This document shows, piece after piece, positions 10,653 to 26,434 of a DNA stretch of 64,000 nt. The notes beneath the pieces are model-generated. The model saw only the letters and a list, made by a program, of their open reading frames with translations, did no database searches and had not been told where the DNA came from. The stretch covers positions 5,142 through 69,141 of the forward strand of contig JABDKO010000227.1 of NCBI GenBank assembly GCA_013002165.1, in the 5' to 3' direction. Both the position numbers and the translations under genes were made by a program. The DNA comes from Rhodothermales bacterium. GTDB taxonomy: Bacteria; Bacteroidota; Rhodothermia; Rhodothermales; JABDKH01. Positions within the stretch are counted from its first letter, which is position 1. Each line of letters starts with the position of its first letter.

Positions 10653-11034
10653 CATTGCAGTCTCAATTCCAATTCCCTCAAGTTACCCTCGTTGTCGCCT
10701 CACTTCTCCTTCGGGTGTACACCGGAAAATCTTGACAGGATCTACACTGGATGACCGTTGTCCGTTCTTTTACCGACATCCAATTTACCTTAAGTTGTTA
10801 TTTCTAAAAGCCGATAATGCTGTCGAATCGTGTTAACAGTTAGCCCATTGTTAACTCGTCCCACAATAAGATTCGGCAGAAAGATTAACGTCATCTAGCC
10901 ACTGTAAGCGACCCAGAGACTGCCACCACAGTCTGATTGAACACCGGTTAGCATGAAGACTGGTTGATGCGGGAGACCACCCGTTATTGGCCGGGACATC
11001 TGTATGCTGGTTGAAAGCCGCGCTTACATACGAG

Positions 11035-14000
11035 ATGATTATAAAAACTACTGTATCCCACTTGTACAGATTAGCAGTTGCCGCGATCTTCGCCGGCACT
11101 TTCCTTTTGGGGCCATCCGCTCAGGCCCAGATCAAAGTTCCAATCGAGGTCATCGGACCCGACGGCTATACACAGTCGGTGAACGTAAACGTCACTTCGG
11201 CATCCGAAGTCAGCCGGCTCTGGTTGCAGGTTCACTCCCCTGGATACAAGTACGGGGAGGGAAACAAGATGAGCGTCCGGATAAACGGCGGTGCCTGGAC
11301 CGACGTTAACAACCAGATCGCTATATGCGAAGCTCCTGAATCATCGTACGAATGTATCGGTGGAGCTTTTGCTACTGTCCGATTCACAATTCCTGCGACG
11401 GGAGTCATCTCGGGGAATAACACGATCGATTTTCGTTTCAATGGGACCGAAGGGTTGACAATTGGCTACCGTGTTCTGGCGTTCAATTTTGTACGCAGTG
11501 ACAACAGCAAGATTCTGCCCGAGTCTACCTTCTATTATGACGATCCTTCCCTGTGGACCGCTCCACTGACAAGCCAGAGTGACATCGATCGCGGAAAACA
11601 ACTGTGGGAGTCAGAACCGCTTCTCGACTTCGGGAATGTATCGATTACTGCGACATGCGCAGACTGCCATGCAAAAGACGGTCGGGATTTGCAGTACTTC
11701 GCGTACTCGAATCATTCGATCATCGAACGAAGCAAGTTCCATGGAATGTCTCAGACCGAGGGCGAGCAGGTGGCAAGCTATATCCGGAATCTTGCCGTTG
11801 CCAGTCATGGAACACCGTGGGATCCGCCATATCAGCCGGGACCCGGACTTGACGATAAGCCAGCTGAGGAATGGGCCGCAGGTGCCGGGCTCGAATGGGT
11901 TCTTGAAGAAGATGAACAGATGATCCCGCACATGTTTCCCGACGGATTTTCTTCCGATCAGATCTTGACGTCAAACGATTTGAACATGAGGGAGATTCCA
12001 ATCGGTATTCAACTTCCTGATTGGAACGAATGGCTTCCACGTGTCCATCCCAAAGATGCCTGGGGCTCTGTGTTCACAACATCGTCCGTCTACACAATCT
12101 ATGCTACCAGCATCCCGAGCACACTGGCCGGCGGAGTACAGAATGCCATAAACAGTGGAAGCATCCTTTCAGTCATGGATAGTTGGGGCGCCGCAATTCG
12201 TGATGGGCGTGGATCGTCCACGTTTAACCCCGACTTTTTCGGCGGATGGGGCTCCGATGGCACCGTTGCCGACTACCAGCTCGGTTATCAGCAGTGGCAG
12301 GCCGTGAAGACGTGGGAGATCATGAACACCTACGAAGGGCTGCAGGAAGCGGCTCCTACGCTGTATCCGGGAGTCGGAGAAGCCAGATCATGGTTCGGCA
12401 ATACGCGATCCGTTTTCGACGTGGCTCCTCACATTTCCGGTCCGCCGCAAACGGGTTCATACCCACACGGCGATCCTCTGCAGAATTTCTTCATGTCGTC
12501 GGCATGGTACGAGCTCCAGCTCATTCTCAACTCGGGCAACCGCAACGGTGTCTCCATCCGGCCGCATGACTGGAAATACCATTACGGTCATATCGGTGAT
12601 ATCATGAAAGAGTCTGGCCGCCGCGAGCCGATGCGCCATCTTAAAGCATATGCTAAAAATATGCAGATGGCTGACAATCGCTATGGCGTTGGCACCGCGA
12701 ATGGCTTCTATCTCCGACACGTAACTCCGAGTCGAATGGTCGGTACCCCCGGCGCAAAGAATCCATTTGAAGACCTTGATTCGGCAACACGGAGAGCCGT
12801 AACTGAGCCGATACTTCGGGCGTTAGTGGTCAAACTGCTTGAGCACGACATCAGTGAATGGTCGCGTCAGACAGGACTGTACGGAATAGAACCGGCTTCG
12901 ACAGTTCCGACTCCCGGTAACGGATTCGATACGTCTACGTACATCGACCACTTCTACCACGCAATACCCGTATTCAATTCAATTGGTGTCGCTCCGACGC
13001 TGTTGGATTCCCTCGCTACCTGGGCAGAATCGGCATGGCCATTGGGTGACTGGCATTCGTTGTATGATTACAATCAGTCAAACAATCCGCCTTCAATTAC
13101 GCTTACGAGTCCTGCAAATGGAACGACCTATACAGAACCGGCAACCATCGCAATGTCCGCGAGTGCATCCGACATTGACGGTTCAGTAGTAAGCGTCAAG
13201 TTCTTCCAGAACGGAATTCAGATTCATGAAGATAATTCAGCTCCGTATTCCTATACGTGGTCTGGTGTTGTTCCAGGAACGTACACAATCTCGGCCCTCG
13301 CCGAGGACAATTCGAGTGCGACCGCTGTCTCCGGATCTGTTAGCGTGACCGTTAACAGTGACAACCCCGGTCCGCCACCTTCAAACAATGACCCGACAGT
13401 TGCAATTACCAGCCCTCTCGCAGGAGCGAGCTACGATGAAGGAGACAACATTGTTATAGAGGCGAACGCTTCGGATTCTGACGGATCTGTGTCCGTCGTC
13501 CAATTCTATCAGAACAACATTCTGCTCGGTCAGGATACGTCTGCTCCGTACTCGTTTACATGGTCGAATGTGCAGGAAGGCGCGTATGCGCTGTCCGCCG
13601 TAGCAACCGATAATGACGGCGCATCCACGACATCAAACTCGATAGTCGTCACGGCAGGTGATAATCCGGGTCCGCCGCCGACAATCACTGAGACACAGAC
13701 TATTGATCTGGTTGTTGGTTGGAATCAAGTCTCCACCTACGTTGCACCGCAGGTAAGCGAGATTGCTTCGATCTTCCAGCCGATTGTGTCCGATATTTTC
13801 CTTGTCAAGGATGTTGTGGGCAACTCATACCACCCGGCACTCGGAATTAATACGATCGAAAACTGGAATTCACTTGAGTCCTATCAAGTGTATGCGAATG
13901 CTGCTTCGACATTCGATGTAGAGGGAGCCGTTCTCGATCCTTCCACGACTGCAGTCCCGATCGTCGAAGGTTGGAACTACATTCCATACCTGCGCAAGAC

Positions 14001-14841
14001 GAATATGTCGATTGATGAGGCGTTGGTCAATGTTACGTCTGATGTCGTCATGGTAAAAGACTACGCTGGCCGTGTTTATTTCCCTGATTTCCAGATTAAT
14101 GAAATCGGAGATTTGGAGCCGGGCCAGGGTTACAAGCTGTTCGTAAATTCCGGTGGGACACTGACCTATCCAGCGAATGCCGCCGGTGTGGCGAGTCGAT
14201 CCAAGGAAGAGTCTGGTCAGGTTCTCGTCGGCATAGCGAGCTCGTCGCTTGTAGTCGTTGATGCCTCAAAACTTCCGGGTGCCCGCAGAGTTTTCGCGGT
14301 TCTTGAGAACGGAACCCGGATTGGTGAGGCGTGGATCTCATCGGTTACAAATCAGGCCTATGTCAAGGTAAGAGGTGACGATGACGTGACCATCGATCTC
14401 GTCGAGGGAGCACTCAACGGAGATCGAATCATTCTTGAAGCGGAGTTTGGTACGGGCGATGTCAAGCGCGTATCGGCCTCCAATATTCAAGATATCCTTG
14501 GCTCAAATACAAGAAGTGTTCTATCCCTGTCCTACAAGACTGATTCGGCGTACCTGGTTGAACTGGGCGAGATTCCAGGAGACTATGTCCTCGAACAGAA
14601 CTATCCGAATCCCTTCAACCCGTCTACAACGATTCGGTATGAGTTACCGGACGATGAGTTCGTCAAGATTGAAGTGTTCAACATGCTTGGTGAGCGTGTC
14701 GCTACACTCGTGAACGAGGAAGTCAGTGCCGGTTCGCATACTGCTACCTTCGAGGCAGACAATATATCAAGCGGCCTTTATGTCTATCGCTTGATCGCTG
14801 GAAGCTATATCGAAGACAGAGCAATGATGTTCTTGAAATAG
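11035..14841 (+). CDS. Secreted multidomain protein: CxxCH module (paralog B), two Ig-like domains, further beta-rich domains and a T9SS C-terminal sorting domain
   Basis: ATG 11035 gives the signal peptide MIIKTTVSHLYRLAVAAIFAGTFLLGPSAQAQ. The track start is TTG 10987. The C-terminus reads NYPNPFNPSTTIRYELP... Confidence 0.85.
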   Translation: MIIKTTVSHLYRLAVAAIFAGTFLLGPSAQAQIKVPIEVIGPDGYTQSVNVNVTSASEVSRLWLQVHSPGYKYGEGNKMSVRINGGAWTDVNNQIAICEAPESSYECIGGAFATVRFTIPATGVISGNNTIDFRFNGTEGLTIGYRVLAFNFVRSDNSKILPESTFYYDDPSLWTAPLTSQSDIDRGKQLWESEPLLDFGNVSITATCADCHAKDGRDLQYFAYSNHSIIERSKFHGMSQTEGEQVASYIRNLAVASHGTPWDPPYQPGPGLDDKPAEEWAAGAGLEWVLEEDEQMIPHMFPDGFSSDQILTSNDLNMREIPIGIQLPDWNEWLPRVHPKDAWGSVFTTSSVYTIYATSIPSTLAGGVQNAINSGSILSVMDSWGAAIRDGRGSSTFNPDFFGGWGSDGTVADYQLGYQQWQAVKTWEIMNTYEGLQEAAPTLYPGVGEARSWFGNTRSVFDVAPHISGPPQTGSYPHGDPLQNFFMSSAWYELQLILNSGNRNGVSIRPHDWKYHYGHIGDIMKESGRREPMRHLKAYAKNMQMADNRYGVGTANGFYLRHVTPSRMVGTPGAKNPFEDLDSATRRAVTEPILRALVVKLLEHDISEWSRQTGLYGIEPASTVPTPGNGFDTSTYIDHFYHAIPVFNSIGVAPTLLDSLATWAESAWPLGDWHSLYDYNQSNNPPSITLTSPANGTTYTEPATIAMSASASDIDGSVVSVKFFQNGIQIHEDNSAPYSYTWSGVVPGTYTISALAEDNSSATAVSGSVSVTVNSDNPGPPPSNNDPTVAITSPLAGASYDEGDNIVIEANASDSDGSVSVVQFYQNNILLGQDTSAPYSFTWSNVQEGAYALSAVATDNDGASTTSNSIVVTAGDNPGPPPTITETQTIDLVVGWNQVSTYVAPQVSEIASIFQPIVSDIFLVKDVVGNSYHPALGINTIENWNSLESYQVYANAASTFDVEGAVLDPSTTAVPIVEGWNYIPYLRKTNMSIDEALVNVTSDVVMVKDYAGRVYFPDFQINEIGDLEPGQGYKLFVNSGGTLTYPANAAGVASRSKEESGQVLVGIASSSLVVVDASKLPGARRVFAVLENGTRIGEAWISSVTNQAYVKVRGDDDVTIDLVEGALNGDRIILEAEFGTGDVKRVSASNIQDILGSNTRSVLSLSYKTDSAYLVELGEIPGDYVLEQNYPNPFNPSTTIRYELPDDEFVKIEVFNMLGERVATLVNEEVSAGSHTATFEADNISSGLYVYRLIAGSYIEDRAMMFLK
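11656..11670 (+). other. CADCH heme-c attachment-type motif in paralog B
   Basis: The codons tgc gca gac tgc cat are in frame, at the position homologous to CSDCH of paralog A. Confidence 0.6.
13081..13680 (+). repeat. Two tandem Ig-like (bacterial Ig / chitobiase-type) domain repeats, each followed by a DNPGPPP linker
   Basis: Repeat 1 is NNPPSITLTSPANGTTY...SAPYSYTWSGVVPGTYTISALAEDN. Repeat 2 is NNDPTVAITSPLAGASY...SAPYSFTWSNVQEGAYALSAVATDN. Confidence 0.75.
14584..14838 (+). other. T9SS (Por) C-terminal sorting domain
   Basis: YVLEQNYPNPFNPSTTIRYELPDDEFVKIEVFNMLGERVATLV...GLYVYRLIAGSYIEDRAMMFLK. Confidence 0.85.
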
Positions 14842-14855
14842 AGCATCGAGTCTTG

Positions 14856-14896
14856 ACAGTCCGGCGCCGGAAACGGCAAGCGGTGAGCCGGACTGT
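14856..14896 (+). terminator. Possible terminator hairpin after paralog B
   Basis: A 10-bp stem ACAGTCCGGC/GCCGGACTGT has a 21-nt loop and starts 15 nt after the stop. It is followed only by TTTCC, a weak T tract. Confidence 0.3.
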
Positions 14897-14959
14897 TTCC
14901 GCCACGGAAGCATCCCACTACAGGCGGTTTCCAAACTGCCCGTCTAACCCACCCAGAAA

Positions 14960-17900
14960 ATGGAAAGAGTACTCGGCCTAGTGGCACTTCTGTGCCTTGC
15001 TACCGGTGTAACTGGTACGGTGCAAGCCCAAACGCATTTCACCGGATGCGTTTCATCAACCGGTGAAAATGCAACGGTGCTTGTTAACGATACGATCGGG
15101 CCATCGATTGATGGTGTTGCACTGGCTAGCGGAGATGAGATTGCCGTCTTTACGACGGAAGGACTATGTGTCGGTGTTGAGGTCTGGACGGGTATCAACA
15201 TCGCACTTACCGTTTGGGGAGACAATTCCCTGACCACAGAAAAAGACGGGTTGTCTGCCAGTGAGCAGATGAATTTTGTGGTCTGGGATGCGTCCTCTCA
15301 AACGGAATTTGGAAACAGTTACGGATCCGTTGATGTGGCATACAGTTCAGTTTCGCCATATAACGGCACCGGTCTCTATGACTCGGATGCCATATACCAG
15401 TTGACTCTGCTAGCGGCCAGCACACCGCGACATCCGGTGGCCGCAGCTTCGGCAACCCCGACTTCGGGAAGCACACCGCTACTCGTCACGTTCGATGCAA
15501 GCGCGTCTTCTGATGAAGATGGATCGATTATTTCATACGCATGGGACTTCGGCGATGGCGGATCCGGGTCGGGCGTTGGCACAACCAATACCTTCATGTC
15601 TGCCGGCACCTATCCGGTTGTCTTGACCGTGACCGACGATGATGCCTACTCCTCCACAGACACGGTAACGATCGTCGTTTCGCCTGCTCCTACAAACGTG
15701 CCGCCCACAGCTTCCTTTTCCCTGACTCCTGATTCCGGCCAGGCACCTCTTACTGTCACCGTCGATGCATCAGGGAGTTCTGACTCCGATGGATCCATCG
15801 TCTCGTACACATGGACATTTGGTGATGGAAGCTCTGCGACGGGTGTCAGCGCATCCCACGAGTATAGCCAGGCAGGTACATTCAGCGTCGTGCTGACTGT
15901 TACTGACGATGATGGAGCAACGGCGTCAGAAACCCGAACAGTAAGCGTTCTGGAGCCGAACAATCAGCCGCCAGCGGCTGCCTTCTCTGCCTCCACGTCT
16001 ACGGGAGTTATTCCACTTCTCGTTACATTCGATGCCTCATCCAGTACTGATCCCGACGGGTCAATTGCTACGTACACCTGGAATTTTGGAGATGGAAGTG
16101 CGGCTACCGGTGTCTCGACATCAAAGACATATACTGTCGCAGGAAGCTACATTGTCACTCTTACCGTCACCGACGACGATGGCGCATCTTCATTAACGCA
16201 GCAGACTATACTTGCTTCGGCAGGCACCTCGAATTTGCCACCGGTAGCAGCATTCACGCTGACACCTAGTGTAGGTACGGCACCTGTCACCGTCGCAACC
16301 GACGGTAGTGCCTCAACGGATTCAGACGGAACGATTTCTTCGTACGCATGGGACTATGGTGACGGCGCTACTGGAACCGGCGTTACTGATTCGCACACCT
16401 ATTCAACGTCGGGCACGTACACAGTCACACTTACCGTCAGCGACAACAATGGTGCAACTGGAAGTTCGTCACAGACGGTAACAGTCTCGTCTCCACCCAC
16501 CGCCGGACCTCTGGTTATGCACCTGACATTCGATGAGTCGTCGGGACAAAACGCAACTGATGTTTCCACGAACGGCAATGATGGTACGTTGCAGGGCGGG
16601 GCGGAGTTTGCGACAGCTGGCATACTATCAGGAGCAGTTCTGCTGAATGGTGGCGACGCTTATGTCGATGTGGCTGACAATGCAGTGCTTAATCAGCAGA
16701 TTGTGAGTAAACGAACGATTTCCATTTGGTTCAGGGCGGATGACGTCTCTGTATCGTCTCGGAAACAGGTCATCTGGGAAGAGGGAGGTCAGCAGAAAGG
16801 CCTTTCGATCTATCTTTTCAATGGATCCCTGTACGTGGGTGGCTGGAACAAATCCACTTCCGAAAGTGGTTGGGACGGCACGTTCCTTTCGACAAGTGCC
16901 GTTCAGTCAAATACGTGGAATCATGTTGCACTTGTGCTCAATGGTGGGCCCACTGTCAGCCCGGGCGCATTGCTGGGATATCTCAATGGGGCTTCCATCG
17001 GAAACGGTACCGCTTCCCAGGTCTGGTCTCACAATGATGACATTGGCATCGGGCGCGTAGATGGCGATACCTGGTTTCATGACGCTACCAATAAGAGCGG
17101 ACAAACACACGGATTCTCTGGGTATATCGATGATGTTCGCGTCTATAACCAGGTACTGACGCAGCCTGAGATCAACGATCTGGCGAATGGCGGCGGGGCA
17201 TCACAGAATCTGCCTCCGAACGCCGTGATTGATGTCGATCAGCAGAGCGGACCTGCGCCACTCCAGGTAAATTTTTCGGCAACGCGTTCTTCCGATAACG
17301 ATGGCAGCATTCAAAGTTACTCGTGGACTCTGGGTAATGGTGAATTCGGAACGGGCCCGACAGTGGCGGCATCGTATACGACGGCCGGGACGTACTCCGT
17401 GACTCTCACAGTGATTGACAACGATGGTGCAACATCCTCCGCGAATGCGACGATTACAGTCGAGCAAACCGTTGGAAATGCACCCCCTCGAGCAGAGATA
17501 GTCGAAACTCTGGGTCGGCGAAACTCCATGTCGATTTCGCTGAACGGAGAGTCATCTTCCGATCCCGACGGGTCGATTGTTCACTACGACTGGGACTTTG
17601 GTGATGGGGCTACAAGCACGGGGCCGTCCGCAACGCATGAGTACTCATCACCCGGATCGTTTCAGGTAATTCTTACCGTGACGGATGACGTGGGACTACA
17701 GGGATCATCAACTTTCTGGGTTTCCGTCTACGATCTGCTTCCAGAAGGAACCGGAAGCAGCCTCGTGGGAGCCGGACAGGGTCAGGACCCGGGCTTTGCC
17801 AGCTACGACGGAGAGACACTGACGCTGCGATCGTCGGCCGCAGTTCCTTCAGCATCTTCCGATGTGTTTCGATTTGTTCATGAGACGGTATCTGGTGACG

Positions 17901-18574
17901 CAACGATCACAGTAAGAATTGAAGAGATCAGTTCCGGTCAGAGCTCTGCACGCATCGGCGTGATGCTTCGCAGTCAGCTCACGCCGGCTGCAACCATGGC
18001 ACATTTGACCATCGATGGCACGGGGCAGGCACATCTCGAGAGTCGCCCCGTAGCAGGTGCTCCGGCGACCTTCTCATCGGCTGGTAGCTTCGGGATTCCC
18101 GGGTGGATCCGGATTAGCCGTCAGGGCAATACATTCAGAACCTTTGCTTCGGTAGATGGTGCAGTATGGACGCCGACAGGGCAGGTCGAGATAGGAATGC
18201 CGGAAACTGTATTTATGGGTGTGACCGCGTCATCCCAATCGGGGTCATCGTTTGACGCCAGTCTTGACAACGTCGCATTCGAGTCGACCGATGAAGCCCT
18301 GCCGGCTGGATACCTTCTGTCTGAAGCCTACCCGAACCCGTTTAATCCGGCCTCGCAGATAACCCTGGTGGTAGACCAGGCGCAGGAGATAAGCGTTTCC
18401 GTGTACAGTGTTACCGGTGTTTTAGTCCAGCAATTGTTCATCGGTGAAGTCGCCGCAAACCAGCTGTACGAATACAGATTTGCTGCGACGGATGGACTTG
18501 CCAGTGGCACTTATTTCTTGCGGGTTTACGGAGAATCCTTTGCGGCAACGAGAGCCGTGGTTTTACTCAAATAA
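14960..18574 (+). CDS. Secreted 1204-aa adhesin-like protein: six PKD domains, a LamG/ConA-like domain, a second ConA-like domain and a T9SS sorting domain
   Basis: It has the signal peptide MERVLGLVALLCLATGVTGTVQAQ, PKD signatures (FDASxSxDxDGSIxSYxWxFGDG...YxVxLTVTDDDG) and a C-terminal YPNPFNPASQITLVV. Confidence 0.9.
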   Translation: MERVLGLVALLCLATGVTGTVQAQTHFTGCVSSTGENATVLVNDTIGPSIDGVALASGDEIAVFTTEGLCVGVEVWTGINIALTVWGDNSLTTEKDGLSASEQMNFVVWDASSQTEFGNSYGSVDVAYSSVSPYNGTGLYDSDAIYQLTLLAASTPRHPVAAASATPTSGSTPLLVTFDASASSDEDGSIISYAWDFGDGGSGSGVGTTNTFMSAGTYPVVLTVTDDDAYSSTDTVTIVVSPAPTNVPPTASFSLTPDSGQAPLTVTVDASGSSDSDGSIVSYTWTFGDGSSATGVSASHEYSQAGTFSVVLTVTDDDGATASETRTVSVLEPNNQPPAAAFSASTSTGVIPLLVTFDASSSTDPDGSIATYTWNFGDGSAATGVSTSKTYTVAGSYIVTLTVTDDDGASSLTQQTILASAGTSNLPPVAAFTLTPSVGTAPVTVATDGSASTDSDGTISSYAWDYGDGATGTGVTDSHTYSTSGTYTVTLTVSDNNGATGSSSQTVTVSSPPTAGPLVMHLTFDESSGQNATDVSTNGNDGTLQGGAEFATAGILSGAVLLNGGDAYVDVADNAVLNQQIVSKRTISIWFRADDVSVSSRKQVIWEEGGQQKGLSIYLFNGSLYVGGWNKSTSESGWDGTFLSTSAVQSNTWNHVALVLNGGPTVSPGALLGYLNGASIGNGTASQVWSHNDDIGIGRVDGDTWFHDATNKSGQTHGFSGYIDDVRVYNQVLTQPEINDLANGGGASQNLPPNAVIDVDQQSGPAPLQVNFSATRSSDNDGSIQSYSWTLGNGEFGTGPTVAASYTTAGTYSVTLTVIDNDGATSSANATITVEQTVGNAPPRAEIVETLGRRNSMSISLNGESSSDPDGSIVHYDWDFGDGATSTGPSATHEYSSPGSFQVILTVTDDVGLQGSSTFWVSVYDLLPEGTGSSLVGAGQGQDPGFASYDGETLTLRSSAAVPSASSDVFRFVHETVSGDATITVRIEEISSGQSSARIGVMLRSQLTPAATMAHLTIDGTGQAHLESRPVAGAPATFSSAGSFGIPGWIRISRQGNTFRTFASVDGAVWTPTGQVEIGMPETVFMGVTASSQSGSSFDASLDNVAFESTDEALPAGYLLSEAYPNPFNPASQITLVVDQAQEISVSVYSVTGVLVQQLFIGEVAANQLYEYRFAATDGLASGTYFLRVYGESFAATRAVVLLK
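15434..16490 (+). repeat. Four tandem PKD domain repeats (protein-level repeats)
   Basis: Four roughly 88-aa units each contain the D-x-DG-S-I pattern, W-x-FGDG and LTVTDDDG-like motifs. Confidence 0.85.
16505..17195 (+). other. LamG / concanavalin-A-like lectin domain
   Basis: The region runs LVMHLTFDESSGQNATDVSTNGNDGTLQGGAEF...WNHVALVLNG...GYIDDVRVYNQVLTQPEINDL. Confidence 0.7.
17211..17730 (+). repeat. Two further PKD domain repeats
   Basis: Supporting segments are SSDNDGSIQSYSWTLGNGEFG...TLTVIDNDG and SSDPDGSIVHYDWDFGDGAT...ILTVTDDVG. Confidence 0.8.
18313..18571 (+). other. T9SS C-terminal sorting domain
   Basis: LLSEAYPNPFNPASQITLVVDQAQEISVSVYSVTGVLVQQL...GTYFLRVYGESFAATRAVVLLK. Confidence 0.85.
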
Positions 18575-18720: not shown

Positions 18721-19035
18721 ATGATTGCTGAAGCTGAAATGATCTCCGAAAAAGCGTATATAATCGTAAGTAAAGATCTTCTATCATCGAGGCTGGGCGA
18801 CGAGATTGTAATCCTTAGTGTCAACGGTGGGAAATACTACGGTCTCAATCCTCTCGCGGCGTTCGTCTGGGGCCTGCTTGCAGATCCAGTCAAATTCAAT
18901 GACTTGAAGATGGCTGTCCTGCAAGAGTATGAAGTCCCTGAAGATAAATGTGTCGCCGATCTGAACAAGCTGATCGTCGATCTACAGAAAGAAGGCCTCG
19001 TCAGCATTGCTGAAGAGAATCCGGTCACGTCCTGA
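18721..19035 (+). CDS. PqqD-like RiPP recognition element (lasso peptide B1 protein)
   Basis: 104 aa with the pattern LGDEIVILSVNGGKYYGLNPLAAFVWGLL...LQEYEVPEDKCVADLNKLIVDLQKEGLV, typical of PqqD/RRE proteins. The start could also be the Met at 18739. Confidence 0.85.
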   Translation: MIAEAEMISEKAYIIVSKDLLSSRLGDEIVILSVNGGKYYGLNPLAAFVWGLLADPVKFNDLKMAVLQEYEVPEDKCVADLNKLIVDLQKEGLVSIAEENPVTS

Positions 19036-19101
19036 GGCTCCGGTTGACCTTCACATTTCGTGACCGCTCGAGACACTTCGAGACCGTCAATCGGGCATAG
19101 C

Positions 19102-20004
19102 ATGAAACACTATTCGGTCTACGGCCTCAACATTTCGTCAGAATTCGAACTCCTCGGCGCACGCACTACAACCCCGTCTCCGGTACCAGATGTCGTGGTG
19201 ACGCGGACCAGTCTTGATTTGCCGTCATCCGAATCTTTTGAAGATGGAAGGTATTCGTCCGCCACAATGTACGAGGCCTTACTTGCCTGGGAAAAGGTTG
19301 GCTGCATACGGATCTTGAGTGGGAAGGAGATACAGGTCGCGCCGATCGCAGGTATTCCCGATGCTGTTGTCAGCCTTTTCATAACGGGTGTAGCGATGGG
19401 TGTTTTGCTTCACCAACGAGGTTTTCTCGTATTGCACGCGAGCGCCGTCCGCATTCAGGACAAAGTCGCTGCATTCATCGGTTTCAAGGGCATGGGTAAA
19501 TCAACGACCGCCGCTGCCATGGTCGGTCAGGGCGCATCGCTGGTCTCTGATGACATCCTTGCAATCGACGGTGATTTCCTTGCGCGTCCAGGCTCCGATC
19601 TTGTCAAATTGTGGCCGCGTGCACTCAGCGCCGCTCTCGAAGATGATCCTGAAGAGAGTCCTGCCTTGTATCCCGGGATTGAAAAGCGTGCAAAGGTATT
19701 TCCAGACTCAGTTGTCGCTGAGCCGTTTCCACTCAGGGCGATCTACGTGCTCGATTCCGGCAACACAGTATCCATTCAAGATGTTGCGCCTGCCGCTGCG
19801 TTCCTTGAGATCATGCGTCATACCTACGCTCCACGTTTTGTGGGTACAGATGGGACGCCGCCGGAATTGTTTGCACAGTGCACACGTTTGGTATCGCAGA
19901 TTCCGGTATTCCGACTGCATCGAAAGCCGGACCTTGCTGAGTTGTCGTCTGTTGCTGTTGCGGTTGAAAGCCACTTCTCGGATCTTCTAGTACAGAATGA
20001 GTGA
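19102..20004 (+). CDS. HPr kinase/phosphorylase-like serine kinase (lasso-peptide tailoring kinase type)
   Basis: MKHYSVYGLNISSEFEL... then LLHQRGFLVLHASAV...AFIGFKGMGKSTTAAAMVGQGASLVSDDI (P-loop). It has an 8-nt overlap with the B2 gene. The track start at 19060 is a probable 5' over-extension. Confidence 0.8.
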   Translation: MKHYSVYGLNISSEFELLGARTTTPSPVPDVVVTRTSLDLPSSESFEDGRYSSATMYEALLAWEKVGCIRILSGKEIQVAPIAGIPDAVVSLFITGVAMGVLLHQRGFLVLHASAVRIQDKVAAFIGFKGMGKSTTAAAMVGQGASLVSDDILAIDGDFLARPGSDLVKLWPRALSAALEDDPEESPALYPGIEKRAKVFPDSVVAEPFPLRAIYVLDSGNTVSIQDVAPAAAFLEIMRHTYAPRFVGTDGTPPELFAQCTRLVSQIPVFRLHRKPDLAELSSVAVAVESHFSDLLVQNE

Positions 20005-20464
20005 TGAGAAAACATCGTACGAAGGTCGCTTCGATCGAAAATTTGCAGGCGATGGGATTCTCTTCGTCCGGGCACTACTCTTACTAGTCGTTGCCAGGCT
20101 GAGTCTCGCCGCAACAGACTATGTCCGGACAGCGAAGCTATTCGGAGAACAGGATTCCTTTGACAGCGACAGGGGGCAAGCTCAAGGCCTTGCCACTTTC
20201 AGATATCGCGCCGCCTGGGCAGTCTCAAAAGCCTCGCGTATCGTTAGATATGACCGTCCATGCCTTGCTCAGGCACTCGTGCTTCGTTTTATCCTTAGAA
20301 GAAAAGGAATATCATCTGACCTGCGCATCGGCGTAAAGAAAAATGACGACCTGTCGATTCGAGCACATGCGTGGGTCGAGAAGGACGGAATTGTTCTGAT
20401 AGGAGGTGCGTCCTCTCCGTTCAGATACACGATGCTCACCCCGGAAGATCAGATAACGCTATGA
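19997..20464 (+). CDS. Lasso peptide leader peptidase B2 (transglutaminase-like Cys protease)
   Basis: 155 aa with the catalytic Cys context RPCLAQALVLRFILRRKGI and His context IRAHAWVEKDGIVLIG. Confidence 0.85.
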   Translation: MSDEKTSYEGRFDRKFAGDGILFVRALLLLVVARLSLAATDYVRTAKLFGEQDSFDSDRGQAQGLATFRYRAAWAVSKASRIVRYDRPCLAQALVLRFILRRKGISSDLRIGVKKNDDLSIRAHAWVEKDGIVLIGGASSPFRYTMLTPEDQITL

Positions 20465-22443
20465 GTGGTCTGGCAGGAATTGTGTTCCGTGATGACCGCC
20501 ACGGGGCTGCCAATTTGATTGACAACATGGTTCAGTCAATGCAATATCGTGGGCCAGACGGGATTGACATCTGGACGAACGCGCATGCAATGCTGGGCCA
20601 GTGCACCCTTCAATCTTCCTCATTCTCTGGATCCGCAATTGCCACGGGCCAGAGCAATGATCGTTTCGTGGTCGTTGGTGATGTGCGCATTGATAACAGA
20701 GATGAACTCCTTAAAATCTGTGGTCATCCGGGAAGTGGACACCCTGCGTCGAAGTCGGACCTTGCACTCGTGAAGTTATTGTTTGAGTCGAGCGGAGATG
20801 CCTTCATTGATTCTATTGAAGGAGATTTTGCATTCGTCCTGTACGATGTTGCCGAGAGAACTATTCGCTGCTACCGCGATCATTTTGGTACGCGCCCGTT
20901 TTACTATTTCCTGAATCGAGACCTGTTTGTTTGTGCATCAGATATCAAGGGAATAATAGCATCGGGTCTGGTTGAGGACACAATCGACACCGACAAACTA
21001 GAGGACTATCTTGTCGGGAATCTTGCGAACCAGGAGAGAACGTTTTATAAAAACATCCGGCGACTGCCACCGGCAAGCGTCATGCTGGTCGACCCGGAAA
21101 ACGTGAAGTTGCATAAGTACTGGAGCGTCGACCAGGTTGAAACGATCGATGCACCGGAGGATCAGATGATCGCCGGTTTTCGCAGCCGATTTCTCACTGC
21201 TGTCAAGAATCGTATCGGATCAGCAGGCGATACTGCATTCATGCTGAGCGGCGGACTTGACTCATCGTCGGTGGTATCCAGTGCAGCCCACATTGCTGCC
21301 GGTAACACGAAAAGATTCAAAACCTATTCCGTCGAATTTCCCTATCTGCCTGACAAGATTAGAAGTCGTACCGATGAAACGGAATATGTAGATGCGGTAG
21401 TTGGTAGCAGCGGTTTGGTCAGTAGTCGGCTCGCAGGTGACACCCAGACGCCACTATCGAGCCTGCAAAGAATGCTGGAGATACACGACGAACCATTTCT
21501 CGTCCCAAATGCTTACCTCGACGCTATCGCTTTGTCTGCAGTACATCACGATGGATGCAAGGTGTTGCTCACCGGACTGGAAGGAGATCTGACTATATCG
21601 CATGGCGATTGGTACTTGAAAGAATTAGGATTCAAAGGTGAGTGGCAGTCGTTCGTCCGCGAGAGCCGTGCCCTGGCAGCCAGAACGGAGAGCGAGCCAG
21701 AGTTGTTTTTTGAACGGTATGCTGTGCCTACTCTCCAGGAACTGGCTCGCTCCGGAGAATGGGGAGCCTTCCGGCGTGGCGCTTCTTCAATGGGACAAGA
21801 ATACGGAGATTCAACCGCGGGCCTGATCTGGCGTCTTGGAATGAGACCCACTTTAGCATCAATATTCAGGAGATTCTCTCAGCGCGAGACACTGGAGGAT
21901 GAGCGGGCATTAAGATTTGTAAGTAGAAAATACCCTGGTCGGAAGGACATCATCGCCCGAATTAACGAAAGTTCACACGAGATGGACCATTCGCGGACCC
22001 AATTTGACCATCATGTTGGTCAGCTGCAGTCCGGGTATCCGGCTTCGCTGCTCGAATTTGCCGAAAAAAACGCCGCAAACTGGCAAATCGACGTTCGTCA
22101 TCCGTTTTTTGACCGCCGACTGGTCGAGTACTCCGTCGGCCTCCCCGGGAGCGCTAAATTATCTGACGGATGGGCCCGATATATACTGCGGGCATCTATG
22201 GAACAGATATTGCCTGATAAAGTACGTTGGAGGGCTCAGAAAGCGGCTCTCGGGCCCAATTTTGCCTATTTGATGGGTAAGGAGTCCGAGGATCGCATAC
22301 GTGCCCTCGCTGAAACGGCAATACAGTATTTTCCGTATATCATTGATAAATCAAGTGTTAGCAACTTGATAAATCGACAGAAATACGCTACTTTGTGGAG
22401 AATACTGGTACTGGGAGGCTGGGTTTTGCAGAAACGATCCTGA
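20461..22443 (+). CDS. Lasso peptide cyclase (asparagine-synthetase-like, C protein)
   Basis: ATG 20461 overlaps the B2 stop (ATGA). It starts MSGLAGIV, so the Cys2 glutaminase nucleophile is absent, but it keeps the PP-loop FMLSGGLDSSSV. The track start at 20371 is an over-extension. Confidence 0.9.
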   Translation: MSGLAGIVFRDDRHGAANLIDNMVQSMQYRGPDGIDIWTNAHAMLGQCTLQSSSFSGSAIATGQSNDRFVVVGDVRIDNRDELLKICGHPGSGHPASKSDLALVKLLFESSGDAFIDSIEGDFAFVLYDVAERTIRCYRDHFGTRPFYYFLNRDLFVCASDIKGIIASGLVEDTIDTDKLEDYLVGNLANQERTFYKNIRRLPPASVMLVDPENVKLHKYWSVDQVETIDAPEDQMIAGFRSRFLTAVKNRIGSAGDTAFMLSGGLDSSSVVSSAAHIAAGNTKRFKTYSVEFPYLPDKIRSRTDETEYVDAVVGSSGLVSSRLAGDTQTPLSSLQRMLEIHDEPFLVPNAYLDAIALSAVHHDGCKVLLTGLEGDLTISHGDWYLKELGFKGEWQSFVRESRALAARTESEPELFFERYAVPTLQELARSGEWGAFRRGASSMGQEYGDSTAGLIWRLGMRPTLASIFRRFSQRETLEDERALRFVSRKYPGRKDIIARINESSHEMDHSRTQFDHHVGQLQSGYPASLLEFAEKNAANWQIDVRHPFFDRRLVEYSVGLPGSAKLSDGWARYILRASMEQILPDKVRWRAQKAALGPNFAYLMGKESEDRIRALAETAIQYFPYIIDKSSVSNLINRQKYATLWRILVLGGWVLQKRS

Positions 22444-22456
22444 ATTTTTACTTTTG
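22425..22456 (+). promoter_or_regulatory. Candidate Bacteroidetes-type promoter (TTTG-N20-TACTTTTG) for the precursor gene
   Basis: TTTG at 22425-22428 and TAnnTTTG at 22449-22456, spaced 20 nt apart, lie 66 nt upstream of the precursor ATG. This is meaningful only if the host uses the Bacteroidetes sigma-A consensus. Confidence 0.3.
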
Positions 22457-22522
22457 GATCGTACTCAAAGCTAGGTGATTCAGTACAGTACATAACATCA
22501 AGCCTTAATTAAGGAATAAGAC

Positions 22523-22681
22523 ATGTCAAACAACGAGAAAAAGGCTTACGAAGCTCCGGCTTTGACCGTCTATGGCAATGTCGAGGAGATCACAAGCTCA
22601 AAGACGTGGCACGCTGCGTCTGACTGGCTTGGCGAAATCGTCGATTACATGTCGCCAAAAGACAACGACTTCTCGTCCTAA
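22523..22681 (+). CDS. Lasso peptide precursor (A), 52 aa; not in the supplied ORF track
   Basis: It translates as MSNNEKKAYEAPALTVYGNVEEITSSKTWHAASDWLGEIVDYMSPKDNDFSS. AAGGA lies 7 nt upstream of the ATG. The leader fits YxxPxLx3Gx5Tx exactly (Y9 P12 L14 G18 T24). The predicted core has Ser1...Asp9. Confidence 0.85.
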   Translation: MSNNEKKAYEAPALTVYGNVEEITSSKTWHAASDWLGEIVDYMSPKDNDFSS

Positions 22682-22694
22682 GTAAAATTGGGCA

Positions 22695-22710
22695 GGGGCA
22701 TCAGTGCCCC
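22695..22710 (+). terminator. Small GC hairpin just after the precursor stop
   Basis: GGGGCA-tcag-TGCCCC starts 14 nt after the stop codon. Confidence 0.4.
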
Positions 22711-22740
22711 TTAACGGATTCGTTCCGGCTTACGTAAGTA

Positions 22741-22780
22741 AAGCCTCGAGAGATCTCTCTCGAGGCTTTTCTATTTTATT
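22741..22780 (+). terminator. Rho-independent terminator
   Basis: A perfect 12-bp stem AAGCCTCGAGAG / CTCTCGAGGCTT with an ATCT loop is followed by TTCTATTTTATT. Confidence 0.85.
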
Positions 22781-22884
22781 AACGTCCGCTGCACATCAAA
22801 ACTTTTGATTCTGAGCCACATTGAACGATACTTTCTTAATGGAGTGTCGTTTTAACATCAAGCAGAATCTGGGCCTGAATAATC

Positions 22885-24732
22885 ATGATTCCCGAATTCG
22901 GTAAAGATCCGATCAAGGAATGGCGTAAGCTTCGCCGAGCGCTGAGGCTGGTATGGGAGTCGTCCCGGTCGTGGACGACGGCCTGGGGGATTCTGCTTGT
23001 CGTCCAGGGCCTCCTGCCGGCGGCCACGGTGTACCTGATTAAACTTCTGGTGGATGCCCTCGTCGCTACAATGCAAGCCGGAGGCTCAGGAGATACTATT
23101 GCGCCGCTCGTGACGTATGCCCTGTTGATGGCCGCGACACTGTTGGCAACGCAGCTGATGCAGCAAATCCAAAGCTGGATCCGCCTTGCACAGGCCGAAC
23201 ATGCATCTGACTACATCAGAGCAGTTATTCATGACAAGGCTGTAGAGGTCGACTACGGGTTCTATGAGACGCCGCGATACTTTGACCGACTTCATCGGGC
23301 GATATCCGATGCAGGGTCCAAGCCACTGGCGTTGCTCGAGTCTCTTGGCCTGCTTGCGCGGAACGCGATCACCTTGCTGGCAATGGCGGCCATAATCCTG
23401 CCTTACGGATGGTGGCTTCCGGCCCTGCTGATTCTCAGTACAATTCCGGCGTTTCTCGTAATCCTCCGTTACAATCGGAAAACGCACGCATGGTGGGAGT
23501 CGAGGACGACTGATCGCCGGTGGGCCCACTACTTTGATACGTTGCTGACGCACAGTTCGATGGCGGCTGAGGTCAGGCTGTTTAATCTTGGGCCCAACTA
23601 CTCATCCTTGTATCAGGATGTCAGAAAGGTTCTGCGCCGTGAACGTATTGACATCGAACGGCGAAATGTAGTTGCTCGAGGCAGCGCAGCACTCCTTGGT
23701 CTTCTTGTTCTGGCATTCGCGATGGGATGGATGGGCCTGCGTGCCATTAGAGGTGAGGTAACGCTAGGTGATATCGCGCTCTTCTACCAGGCATTCAATC
23801 AGGGTCAACAGCTGCTGAAGGGACTTCTGGGCTCCGTCGGGCAGATCTACAACAGCAGCCTGTTTCTCGACAACTTGTACGACTTTCTCGATCAGGAGCC
23901 ATCCATCGCCCATGAAGAAAATGCTCCACCGTTTCCATCCGAAGTTTCAGAGATCGAGTTTCGCGATATAACATTCCACTACCCCGAGTCAGCGCGAGCG
24001 GCACTGACTGGATTCAATCTTCGTATTGATGGTACGTCTTCAACGGCAATTGTCGGTCAGAACGGGGCCGGGAAAAGCACGCTTCTCAAACTTCTCTGCC
24101 GGTTCTACGACCCGCAGCAGGGAAGTGTTATGGTTAACGGTCGAGACATTCGCGAATATAATCTTCGAAGTCTTCGAGATTCGATTGCTGTTCTTTTTCA
24201 GTTCCCCGTCAACTTTCACGCAACGGTTGAAGAATCGATACACCTTGGCAGTATCGCACAGCCGGTAGACACGACGAGGGTTGAAGAAGCGGCGGTTGTA
24301 GCCGGAGCGGATTCGTTCATCAAGTCGCTTCCTGCAGGGTACGGTTCATTGCTCGGTAAATGGTTTGTAGACGGGCAGGAACTGAGTGGTGGAGAATGGC
24401 AGCGACTGGCAATGGCAAGGGCAATTTACCGGGACGCGCCAATAGTACTGCTGGACGAGCCGACCAGCATGATGGATTCGTGGAGTGAGGCAGACTGGTT
24501 CAATCGTCTGCTCTCACATTCGGATGGAAAGGCCTTGTGCGTAATCACGCATAGGCTCACAATCGCGAAGAGGGCAGCTACAATTGTTGTCATGCATCAG
24601 GGCAACATCGTGGAGCGAGGAACCCACGATGAACTGATCGCAAGAAATGGTCGCTACGCAGAGTCCTGGTTCGAACAACATTCGGAGGATGTGGAGGGCA
24701 GTCCTCGCGAAGTCGGGGGTGCTGGCGGATGA
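22885..24732 (+). CDS. ABC transporter, fused permease/ATPase (lasso peptide exporter/immunity type, McjD-like)
   Basis: The N-terminal half has six hydrophobic spans. It has Walker A GQNGAGKST, signature LSGGEWQR and Walker B IVLLDEPTS. Confidence 0.9.
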   Translation: MIPEFGKDPIKEWRKLRRALRLVWESSRSWTTAWGILLVVQGLLPAATVYLIKLLVDALVATMQAGGSGDTIAPLVTYALLMAATLLATQLMQQIQSWIRLAQAEHASDYIRAVIHDKAVEVDYGFYETPRYFDRLHRAISDAGSKPLALLESLGLLARNAITLLAMAAIILPYGWWLPALLILSTIPAFLVILRYNRKTHAWWESRTTDRRWAHYFDTLLTHSSMAAEVRLFNLGPNYSSLYQDVRKVLRRERIDIERRNVVARGSAALLGLLVLAFAMGWMGLRAIRGEVTLGDIALFYQAFNQGQQLLKGLLGSVGQIYNSSLFLDNLYDFLDQEPSIAHEENAPPFPSEVSEIEFRDITFHYPESARAALTGFNLRIDGTSSTAIVGQNGAGKSTLLKLLCRFYDPQQGSVMVNGRDIREYNLRSLRDSIAVLFQFPVNFHATVEESIHLGSIAQPVDTTRVEEAAVVAGADSFIKSLPAGYGSLLGKWFVDGQELSGGEWQRLAMARAIYRDAPIVLLDEPTSMMDSWSEADWFNRLLSHSDGKALCVITHRLTIAKRAATIVVMHQGNIVERGTHDELIARNGRYAESWFEQHSEDVEGSPREVGGAGG

Positions 24733-25970
24733 TCAAGACGCACGCTATTCACGAAAACGGGCACGACTCGACAGTGAAGACTGCACGGGAAGGTCCGATC
24801 GTCTCTGGCGCTTCGAGGGAGATGGAATTTATTCTTACCGTTCTTCACGCGAATTGGCCCGAAGCAGGACCCGCTCGTGCGGGCACGTTGATCGAGATAG
24901 GACTCGATTGGCGTTTAGTGCTGCGTCTGGCCATTCATCACGGAGTGATAGATCTCTTTTTTGATAACCTGCGTGGTACAATTGTCGATTTGCTGCCGCA
25001 GAGTCTCACCGATAGCCTTCAGGCCAACAGCCAACTGTCAGCGCACAAGAACCTCTACTTCTCATCAGAGCTGATTCACATTGTCAGCCTTCTGGAGCGC
25101 GGCGGCATTCCGGTAATCTCACTAAAGGGCCCCCTGCTGGGTTCTTACCTGTACGACAATATCTCGCTTCGTCCATTCGGTGACCTGGATCTCGTAGTGC
25201 GCAAAGAGGATATACTTCGAGCCAAAACGATTCTGGTGGAAGAGGGATTCCGGCCGATTTCGATGTTGAGTGCAGATGACGAGAAGGACTACATTGAAAG
25301 TCAATTCGCTCTGACGCTTACTCGCAAACGCGGAGATTTTCAAACTGTGGCTGAGCTTCACTGGGCACTGACTCACAGGTTTTTCTCTTTCAAGTTCGAT
25401 CCGGAAAATGTCTGGACCATGACCGAGCATTTGAAGTTGTCGGACACGACGATAACCACGCTGGCGCGACCTCTGCTGCTACTGTTCCTGTGCGTTCACG
25501 GCGCGAAGCATGACTGGAATCGTATCATATGGCTTTGCGACGTCGTGCGCCTTGCTCAGCGTATGACCGATGAAGACTGGAAAACATTCGAGCACCTCGC
25601 AAACCAAACCCGGTCGGTCAGGATGGCGACAGTCGGATTGGGTCTGGGGCAGCAACTGATGGGTTACACATATCCAGAAGGGATCCTGACACTCATCAAT
25701 TCGGATGCCAGAGGCCAGAAATGGACGACGCGTCTTGCACAGCATTTCAAGAGTGGCGAGACAAACAAGCTGCCAAAGCTGGTGTCGATGCGATTCCAGA
25801 CAGGCGTGCGCGAAAGCGTCCGGGACCGTTGGGGATCTTACTGGCAGCAGTTCAAGCTGCTAATTAGTCCTACTGAGTCGGACAGGAGTTTTATCAAGCT
25901 GCCGAGACTTCTATATCCTCTGTACTATGTCGTACGACCGTTACGTGTAATTCTACAACGTACGCGGTAA
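24729..25970 (+). CDS. Nucleotidyltransferase-fold protein (NTP_transf_5-like), putative lasso tailoring enzyme
   Basis: It has an ATGA overlap with the exporter gene and the Pol-beta-type NTase motif LRPFGDLDLVVRKED. Confidence 0.75.
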   Translation: MIKTHAIHENGHDSTVKTAREGPIVSGASREMEFILTVLHANWPEAGPARAGTLIEIGLDWRLVLRLAIHHGVIDLFFDNLRGTIVDLLPQSLTDSLQANSQLSAHKNLYFSSELIHIVSLLERGGIPVISLKGPLLGSYLYDNISLRPFGDLDLVVRKEDILRAKTILVEEGFRPISMLSADDEKDYIESQFALTLTRKRGDFQTVAELHWALTHRFFSFKFDPENVWTMTEHLKLSDTTITTLARPLLLLFLCVHGAKHDWNRIIWLCDVVRLAQRMTDEDWKTFEHLANQTRSVRMATVGLGLGQQLMGYTYPEGILTLINSDARGQKWTTRLAQHFKSGETNKLPKLVSMRFQTGVRESVRDRWGSYWQQFKLLISPTESDRSFIKLPRLLYPLYYVVRPLRVILQRTR

Positions 25971-25999: not shown

Positions 26000-26434
26000 T
26001 CAGGCGGCCGGCTTTTCTGACTGGACAACCGTTGGTTGAAAACCAGTTGGAACCGAAATTGGACTCTCTTTCGCCGACGAATCTTCCACGAGCAGTGTAG
26101 GGTAGGCGCCGAGGTCAAAGTCGCGTACAAATCGACGAAGTACCTCGGGCAATGAAACGACTATGTTGTCATTTACCTCGCGTATCTCGGATTGCCAGGC
26201 GCGGGCAACAGATGCCGCTTTCGACGGGTCTTTGAAGCAAACACCATCCACGCCCACCATTCGCGAAAGACTACGCGAAACAGGGCACGAATATAGCTTA
26301 CCTCTGATGCCGGAAGGAATAGAGTCGAGGCTATTCATATCCAACGCTGAGCGCGCATCATTCAGGGCGCAGAGTACCTTTCTACGGCTGGGCCGAAAGG
26401 GGAATACCATCATAGCAGTAAGTATCCTATGCAT
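26000..26434 (-). CDS. Hypothetical protein (weak call)
   Basis: It is the only long ORF in the 0.9-kb gap after the lasso cluster. I recognised no motif, and it may be non-coding. Confidence 0.3.
   Translation of the reverse strand: MHRILTAMMVFPFRPSRRKVLCALNDARSALDMNSLDSIPSGIRGKLYSCPVSRSLSRMVGVDGVCFKDPSKAASVARAWQSEIREVNDNIVVSLPEVLRRFVRDFDLGAYPTLLVEDSSAKESPISVPTGFQPTVVQSEKPAA

Follow-up and report, generated by a model that had tools for sequence, protein, structure and literature searches.

Is the short open reading frame (ORF) that lies just behind a lasso cyclase gene in a Rhodothermales genome the precursor gene of a lasso peptide, and how would its product be tailored? The window, i.e., the whole stretch of 64,000 nucleotides analyzed here, derives from a MAG of the Rhodothermales, an order placed in the phylum Rhodothermota. 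A sequence-only reading of this window had singled out a 52-codon ORF as a class II lasso precursor with a Ser1-Asp9 ring. We consider this ORF almost certainly a genuine lasso precursor, and it is quite likely that it represents gene A of a split-B lasso cluster arranged as B1-K-B2-C-A and D-N, the product of which would be tailored as proposed below.

The precursor gene

The features of the precursor gene are as follows.

22523-22681 (+): precursor gene A, 52 aa and stop, translated as MSNNEKKAYEAPALTVYGNVEEITSSKTWHAASDWLGEIVDYMSPKDNDFSS
22523..22597 (+): leader part of A, 25 aa, MSNNEKKAYEAPALTVYGNVEEITS; matched by NF033528 at residues 6-24 and by NF033521 at residues 9-24
22598..22681 (+): core part of A, 27 aa and stop, SKTWHAASDWLGEIVDYMSPKDNDFSS; an isopeptide ring S1-D9 and a loop/tail of 18 aa are predicted
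22511..22515 (+): Shine-Dalgarno-like AAGGA, 7 nt 5' of the ATG

The ORF exists as it had been described, with an identical translation, and both its AAGGA motif 7 nt upstream and its distance of 79 nt from the cyclase stop, which ends at 22443, are borne out by the sequence; the AAGG upstream of the ATG is kept in four of five loci. It had been called unlisted, which holds for the track of ORFs of at least 60 aa but not for NCBI, where exactly this protein is recorded as NND72408.1, 'lasso RiPP family leader peptide-containing protein [Rhodothermales bacterium]'. Two NCBIfam models recognize it above their cut-offs, namely NF033528 (33.5 bits, cut-off 33) and NF033521 (22.1 bits, cut-off 19).

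The leader displays every fixed position of the consensus YxxPxLx3Gx5Tx that had been ascribed to it (Y9, P12, L14, G18, and T24). This strict pattern matches once in the six frames of the 64-kb window, with about 0.1 match expected per shuffled window. By itself it is only mildly improbable, and its significance comes from its position, the sole match being located directly 3' of the lasso cyclase on the same strand.

Comparison with the orthologues described below revealed 13-22 synonymous and 0-8 non-synonymous substitutions, the precursor of locus L001 differing by 13 synonymous and no non-synonymous changes. The resulting dN/dS ranges from 0 to 0.07 (maximum 0.07 in any pair) at a near-saturated dS of 0.6-2.2, a substitution pattern which shows that the ORF is expressed as protein and that its core is under constraint as strong as that on its leader. 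A chance ORF or a non-coding spacer could be invoked given that the frame is short and that the leader pattern alone has a chance of about 10% to turn up somewhere in 64 kb, but this reading is refuted by the substitution pattern, with which the position, the ribosome binding site and the above-cut-off HMM matches all concur, and its probability is practically nil. This establishes A as a true gene that evolves under purifying selection.

A complete split-B lasso cluster

Seven genes on the forward strand, from 18721 to 25970, follow each other in the order B1-K-B2-C-A-terminator-D-N according to Pfam and NCBIfam. Besides A, they are the following.

18721..19035 (+): B1, PqqD-like RiPP recognition element (leader-binding chaperone); PF05402, 58.2 bits (cut-off 23.4)
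19102..20004 (+): K, HPr-kinase-like lasso precursor kinase; TIGR04355 2e-9, PF07475 3.7e-4
19997..20464 (+): B2, transglutaminase-like leader peptidase; NF033537, 81.6 bits (cut-off 33), PF13471, 78 bits
20461..22443 (+): C, lasso macrolactam synthetase (cyclase); NF033535, PF00733, GATase_7
22885..24732 (+): D, ABC exporter; PF00664 and PF00005
24729..25970 (+): N, PF14907 'uncharacterised nucleotidyltransferase'; E 1.1e-52

The interpretation of the ORF as a lasso precursor thus gains from its company, since B1, B2, the cyclase and the ABC exporter adjoin it. Judged by its gene content the locus is a complete split-B lasso cluster, and on every sequence-level count it fits the lasso clusters and their kinase-tailored subfamily. 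Start and stop codons overlap at K/B2, B2/C and D/N. The catalytic motifs of kinase, peptidase and nucleotidyltransferase are intact; in B2, the invariant residues Cys89 and His124 line up with those of the validated BsfB2.

Two components depart from this picture in score, as B1 (59.4 bits with NF033536 lasso_PqqD_Bac, cut-off 80) and the cyclase (478.5 bits with NF033535 'lasso peptide isopeptide bond-forming cyclase', cut-off 525) remain under the curated cut-offs, though these are their best NCBIfam matches. For A and C, the best-scoring NCBIfam models are of cyanobacterial type (NF033528 lasso_cyano and NF033535 lass_lactam_cya), but the host is not a cyanobacterium and NF033528 matches the leader only, not the core. 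Cyanobacteria account for many of the cyclase homologues with identities of about 32%.

Two start codons differ from those of the ORF list. The true start of K is the ATG at 19102 rather than the GTG at 19060, and that of the cyclase is the ATG at 20461, overlapping the B2 stop (ATGA), rather than 20371; the latter is supported by the NF033535 match, which begins at residue 31 of the 690-aa ORF, and by the identical NCBI protein of 660 aa. This protein, the Rhodothermales MAG protein HKN43_12605 (100% identity), is labeled 'hypothetical protein' in GenBank, even though the adjoining precursor carries a lasso leader annotation.

Orthologous loci and conservation of the core

The contigs of the closest cyclase homologues, with cyclase identities of 65, 49, 47, and 45%, were compared with the window. 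All are syntenic with it, including CMD and DUF3179 genes downstream and T9SS PKD-repeat genes upstream. Within the cluster, synteny was recorded for B1 in L001 and L002, for D in L002 and L004 (72-74% identity), and for N in L002, L004, and L006. The sequence-only reading had made its claim depend on a conserved small ORF at this position in homologous clusters, and a 52-codon ORF indeed occupies it in L001, L002/L008, L004, and L005, which are four independent loci in synteny with the window; the ORF of L005 runs off the contig end. L008, which also encodes the precursor, is a GTDB Rhodothermales species representative. The identities to the window are as follows.

L001: precursor 100%; biosynthetic and flanking genes 65-74%
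L002: precursor 94%; biosynthetic and flanking genes 43-74%
L004: precursor 87%; biosynthetic and flanking genes 41-72%

A search with the precursor sequence returned only its own 90% cluster, and a scan of the genome collection added one further species (L008) and two leader-only matches. In these searches, the core had no detectable relatives beyond a small Rhodothermales clade.

Six protein variants of the precursor are on record. Their cores vary at positions 1 (S/T), 3 (T/S), 18 (M/L), 19 (S/T), 21 (K/N), 24 (D/G), and 25 (F/Y), and are invariant at K2, W4 through Y17 (including D9), P20, D22, N23, and S26-S27. The C-terminal Ser-Ser (...FSS) is constant in all full-length variants.

The precursor, including its core, is far better conserved (87-100%) than its own biosynthetic enzymes (41-74%). 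RiPP cores usually diverge faster than leaders and enzymes, and the situation observed here is the reverse of that of the usual fast-evolving core. In a tentative reading that, taken as a whole, we regard as rather unlikely, the product is a phosphorylated or phosphoglycosylated lasso peptide of Rhodothermota, kept near-constant over its whole core while its enzymes diverged to 41-65% identity. If true, the near-constant core would speak for a conserved role in physiology, or for a target molecule that is itself conserved, and less for an antibiotic evolving in an arms race, and the macrolactam would start from Thr1 in several orthologues.

Leader, predicted cleavage site and predicted ring

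The translation confirms a 27-aa core with S1, D9 and no Cys, provided that cleavage occurs after S25. In that case Y9, P12, L14, and T24 of the leader become Y-17, P-14, L-12, and T-2, which is the canonical lasso spacing; the first three occupy the leader register that was experimentally defined for another kinase-containing cluster (PMC10368454). Among core positions 7-9, only Asp9 is acidic; this residue, which had been put forward as ring acceptor, does not vary between the six variants. Given the cut after S25 and this single acceptor, the core would form an S1-D9 ring with an 18-residue tail and, being Cys-free, a class II lasso peptide. Y17/M18 or F25, which the sequence-only reading had named, are putative plug residues. 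A ring between S/T1 and D9 is thus very probable by comparison with known lasso peptides, and by the same analogy the tail would thread through it.

Ser at core position 1 is correct for the precursor of the window but not for the family, as residue 1 is Thr (TKTW.../TKSW...) in three orthologous variants (L002 7972-8130, L004 3615-3773, and L008 10001-10159). This Thr1 is unusual for a lasso N-terminus and weighs somewhat against our preferred explanation. We know of no characterized lasso peptide with a macrolactam starting at Thr1, and literature searches for such an N-terminus gave no relevant result. The unusual occurrence of both Ser and Thr as predicted first residue could be taken as a sign that the precursor is cleaved elsewhere, for instance after S26, so that K1 and D8 would close the ring, or after T24, which would make a ring of 10 residues. 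To our knowledge, neither a 10-residue lasso ring nor a characterized lasso peptide with Lys at position 1 has been reported, which argues against both cuts. Leaders with Ile(-2) do occur in kinase-type clusters and the present leader reads E-E-I-T-S, but only cleavage after S25 places Y, P, L, and T together at -17, -14, -12, and -2 (PMC10368454). We therefore hold another cleavage site or ring to be very improbable.

Proposed biosynthesis

With cleavage after S25 and a ring closed at Asp9, the following pathway can be proposed, in which ring position, threading, phosphosite, hexosylation and export are modeled on characterized systems. B1 would bind the leader through Y-17/P-14/L-12, and K, probably aided by B1, would phosphorylate the linear precursor, most likely on its C-terminal Ser. 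B2 would then cut after Thr(-2)-Ser(-1), whereupon C would adenylate Asp9 and couple it to the amine thus freed on Ser1 (Thr1 in orthologues), yielding a 9-residue macrolactam threaded by an 18-residue tail. The phosphate may then receive hexose from N, in a PsmN-like manner. Finally, D would export the product, for which an McjD-like role in export and immunity can be inferred by analogy.

Kinase and nucleotidyltransferase

The class II assignment made from the sequence alone remains adequate for the Cys-free core, but it missed the K and N genes, owing to which the product is probably phosphorylated and possibly hexosylated. K carries the H...GxxGxGKS...DD catalytic motif of validated lasso-precursor kinases. 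In the K alignment, H126, G141, G144, G146, K147, S148, D164, and D165 (numbering of the 314-aa ORF) are invariant, with the same spacing as H148-G163-G166-G168-K169-S170-D186-D187 of BsfK, most of which were shown to matter by mutagenesis (PMC10368454). A BLASTP comparison of K with BsfK, as translated from the published bsfK gene (PMC10368454), gave 27% identity (E 7e-13). The HPr-kinase family matches of K itself are weak but are strengthened by a profile of six K orthologues, which has the catalytic core of HPrK/P (1jb1, E 1.3e-5) as its best PDB match; PDB searches with K and N as single sequences yielded nothing useful.

The start of N overlaps the stop of D, and its G134 and D152-x-D154 are invariant. 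The latter is analogous to the D134/D136 pair of PsmN, mutation of which inactivates the enzyme (PMC6993621), a likeness drawn from the motif and from the description of PsmN. PsmN itself is described just as an 'uncharacterized NTP transferase' (PMC6993621), and it is required to add one to two hexoses onto the phosphate of its lasso peptide (PMC6993621, PMC9266682). By analogy, N may hexosylate the product encoded here.

K-dependent phosphorylation of the precursor is, in our view, probable. The macrolactam might nonetheless be made while K and/or N are silent or act elsewhere, resulting in a plain class II lasso peptide; indeed, unphosphorylated paeninodin and pseudomycoidin were also seen in heterologous hosts (PMC9266682, PMC6993621), and whether N itself transfers the glycosyl is unsettled in the literature. 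Such an outcome is distinctly unlikely given that K and N are inside the operon, tied to their neighbors by the overlapping codons noted above, and that both are syntenic in all orthologous loci with their catalytic residues kept.

Candidate sites of phosphorylation

If K phosphorylates the precursor, the core offers it two candidate sites, the invariant C-terminal Ser-Ser and the conserved hydroxyl at position 3, and since hardly any part of the core varies, conservation by itself does not tell them apart. Precedents exist for both. PadeK, ThcoK, SyanK, and PsmK act on the linear precursor, in which they (poly)phosphorylate the C-terminal Ser (PMC6993621, PMC9266682), whereas BsfK, the activity of which is stimulated by B1, phosphorylates the ring residue Ser3 and accepts Thr3 (PMC10368454).

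From metagenomes, 80 loci with relatives of K were collected and the precursors linked to them were extracted. A C-terminal Ser is present in 13 of 40 such precursors against a Ser background of 10.5% (p ~1e-4, the sequences not being independent), and S/T at position 3 in just 3 of 40. The enrichment of Ser ends and the rarity of S/T3 both favor the C-terminal Ser. A neighbor-joining tree of the kinases labeled with their linked precursors did not separate the two sites, the clade of the window standing alone with BsfK as outgroup, and the kinases nearest to K (at most 39% identity) are often beside precursors without a Ser end.

Phosphorylation of ring residue 3 in the manner of BsfK (Thr3 here, Ser3 in L004) has several arguments in its favor. 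The hydroxyl is conserved (T in four variants, S in L004 and L005), K aligns with BsfK, and BsfK, which takes either residue and comes from a cluster likewise containing K, N, and D (PMC10368454), is the sole validated kinase that was compared directly with K. On the other hand, the kinase tree places BsfK as outgroup, and BsfA ends in Asp while an invariant Ser-Ser forms the C-terminus here, like those of PadeA, PsmA, ThcoA, and SyanA; the counts among the 40 kinase-linked precursors point in the same direction. We thus consider residue 3 an unlikely phosphosite, with the C-terminal Ser clearly favored over it, and we lean slightly toward a phosphate on the C-terminal Ser by comparison with the paeninodin-type systems. 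Together with the motifs of K and N, the invariant Ser-Ser makes it probable that the peptide belongs to the paeninodin/pseudomycoidin subfamily, whose members are phospho- or phosphoglycosyl-lasso peptides.

Among the kinase-linked precursors, some have a leader very similar to that of the window (PPALTVYGNVEELTH), as in a Pyrinomonadaceae MAG (L009 9971-10144) and in L028, followed by cores such as GAPNPTLKQLGNGDD... without Asp/Glu at positions 7-9. Such an acceptor is absent from 13 of the 40 candidate cores, which have either differing cleavage sites or unusual rings.

Comparison with known lasso systems

The system would work like the pseudomycoidin and bsf clusters. The pseudomycoidin (psm) cluster of Bacillus pseudomycoides has in common with the present locus a split B1/B2, C, A, an HprK-like kinase, a putative counterpart of N, and the ABC exporter D, as well as a Ser-ending precursor with a predicted 9-residue X1-Asp9 ring, the DD of the kinase metal site and the DxD motif of the nucleotidyltransferase (PMC6993621). 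It differs by its phylum (Firmicutes as opposed to Rhodothermota) and by its gene order, the present one being B1-K-B2-C-A-D-N, in which A follows C and N closes the cluster. Moreover, the present core is unrelated and longer (27 aa) and would begin with Ser/Thr instead of Ala.

Paeninodin (pade) from Paenibacillus dendritiformis, ThcoA, and SyanA are similarly tailored by kinases, which phosphorylate the C-terminal Ser on the linear precursor (PMC9266682). These kinases display a His-Lys-Asp-Asp motif as does K, a likeness established from their description. The paeninodin ring is Ala1-Asp9, and a 9-residue Asp9 ring is predicted here too, but the pade cluster has no N gene and these cores share no sequence similarity with the present one. 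In the bsf cluster of Bradymonas sediminis, the gene content is identical to that of the present locus (A, B1, B2, C, D, K, and N), and Y-17, P-14, and L-12 are in the same register (PMC10368454). However, BsfA has Ile(-2), an Asp end and a phosphorylated Ser3, whereas the present precursor has Thr(-2) and a Ser-Ser end.

Novelty and meaning

The peptide is an uncharacterized member of a known lasso family. In terms of annotation it is ordinary, as the precursor is already annotated in GenBank and recognized by the NCBI pipeline. A literature search found the core sequence in no paper, nor any published lasso peptide from Rhodothermales. The locus adds a complete and intact kinase and nucleotidyltransferase lasso cluster from this order. 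Paeninodin and pseudomycoidin showed no antibacterial activity (PMC6993621), and a family with a core far more conserved than its enzymes is useful for asking what role phosphorylated and phosphoglycosylated lasso peptides may have. In addition, the natural S1/T1, T3/S3, and F25/Y25 variants represent ready-made data on substrate tolerance.

Regulatory elements and neighborhood

Several short conserved elements surround the precursor gene.

22471-22483: near-invariant 13-mer CTAGGTGATTCAG upstream of the precursor, in diverging surroundings
22695..22710 (+): small conserved hairpin just 3' of the precursor stop, with pairs kept through orthologue changes
22740..22779 (+): intrinsic-terminator-like hairpin (13 bp) and T-tract between A and D, from a terminator scan
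22804..22832 (+): block of 29 nt located 5' of the ABC gene D, near-invariant across five loci with diverging flanks

The terminator hairpin has an RNA fold z of -6.1 relative to shuffled sequences and is kept in all orthologous loci, with compensatory double changes at five stem pairs (four loci). Its probable effect is that transcripts with A outnumber those of D-N. The 29-nt block is unique in the window; as a speculation, this block and the 13-mer might be promoter or operator elements, the former for D-N. No conserved RNA structure was found in the spacer between C and A, where conservation is at the sequence level only.

Bacteroidetes-type promoters follow the consensus TTTG / TAnnTTTG. 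Inside the 3' end of the cyclase gene, positions 22425-22456 read TTTG, 20 nt, then TACTTTTG, which resembles such a -33/-7 promoter. The putative -7 element is only partly conserved in orthologous loci; this promoter could provide the precursor with transcription of its own.

Base composition around the cluster gave no island signature, and Rfam and tRNA scans of the whole window were empty. Immediately upstream of the cluster, at 10987-18574 (+), are the genes of two very large proteins that combine PKD/Big_7 repeats with C-terminal sorting domains of the T9SS type. These genes are syntenic with the lasso cluster in L001 and L002, suggesting that the cluster is in a stable chromosomal neighborhood. 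Directly downstream of N, an ORF of 144-145 aa without Pfam match is encoded on the opposite strand (26000-26434 in the window, 11439-11876 in L002, and 7210-7647 in L004, all on the reverse strand); it is present, at 67-70% identity, in all loci that extend that far.
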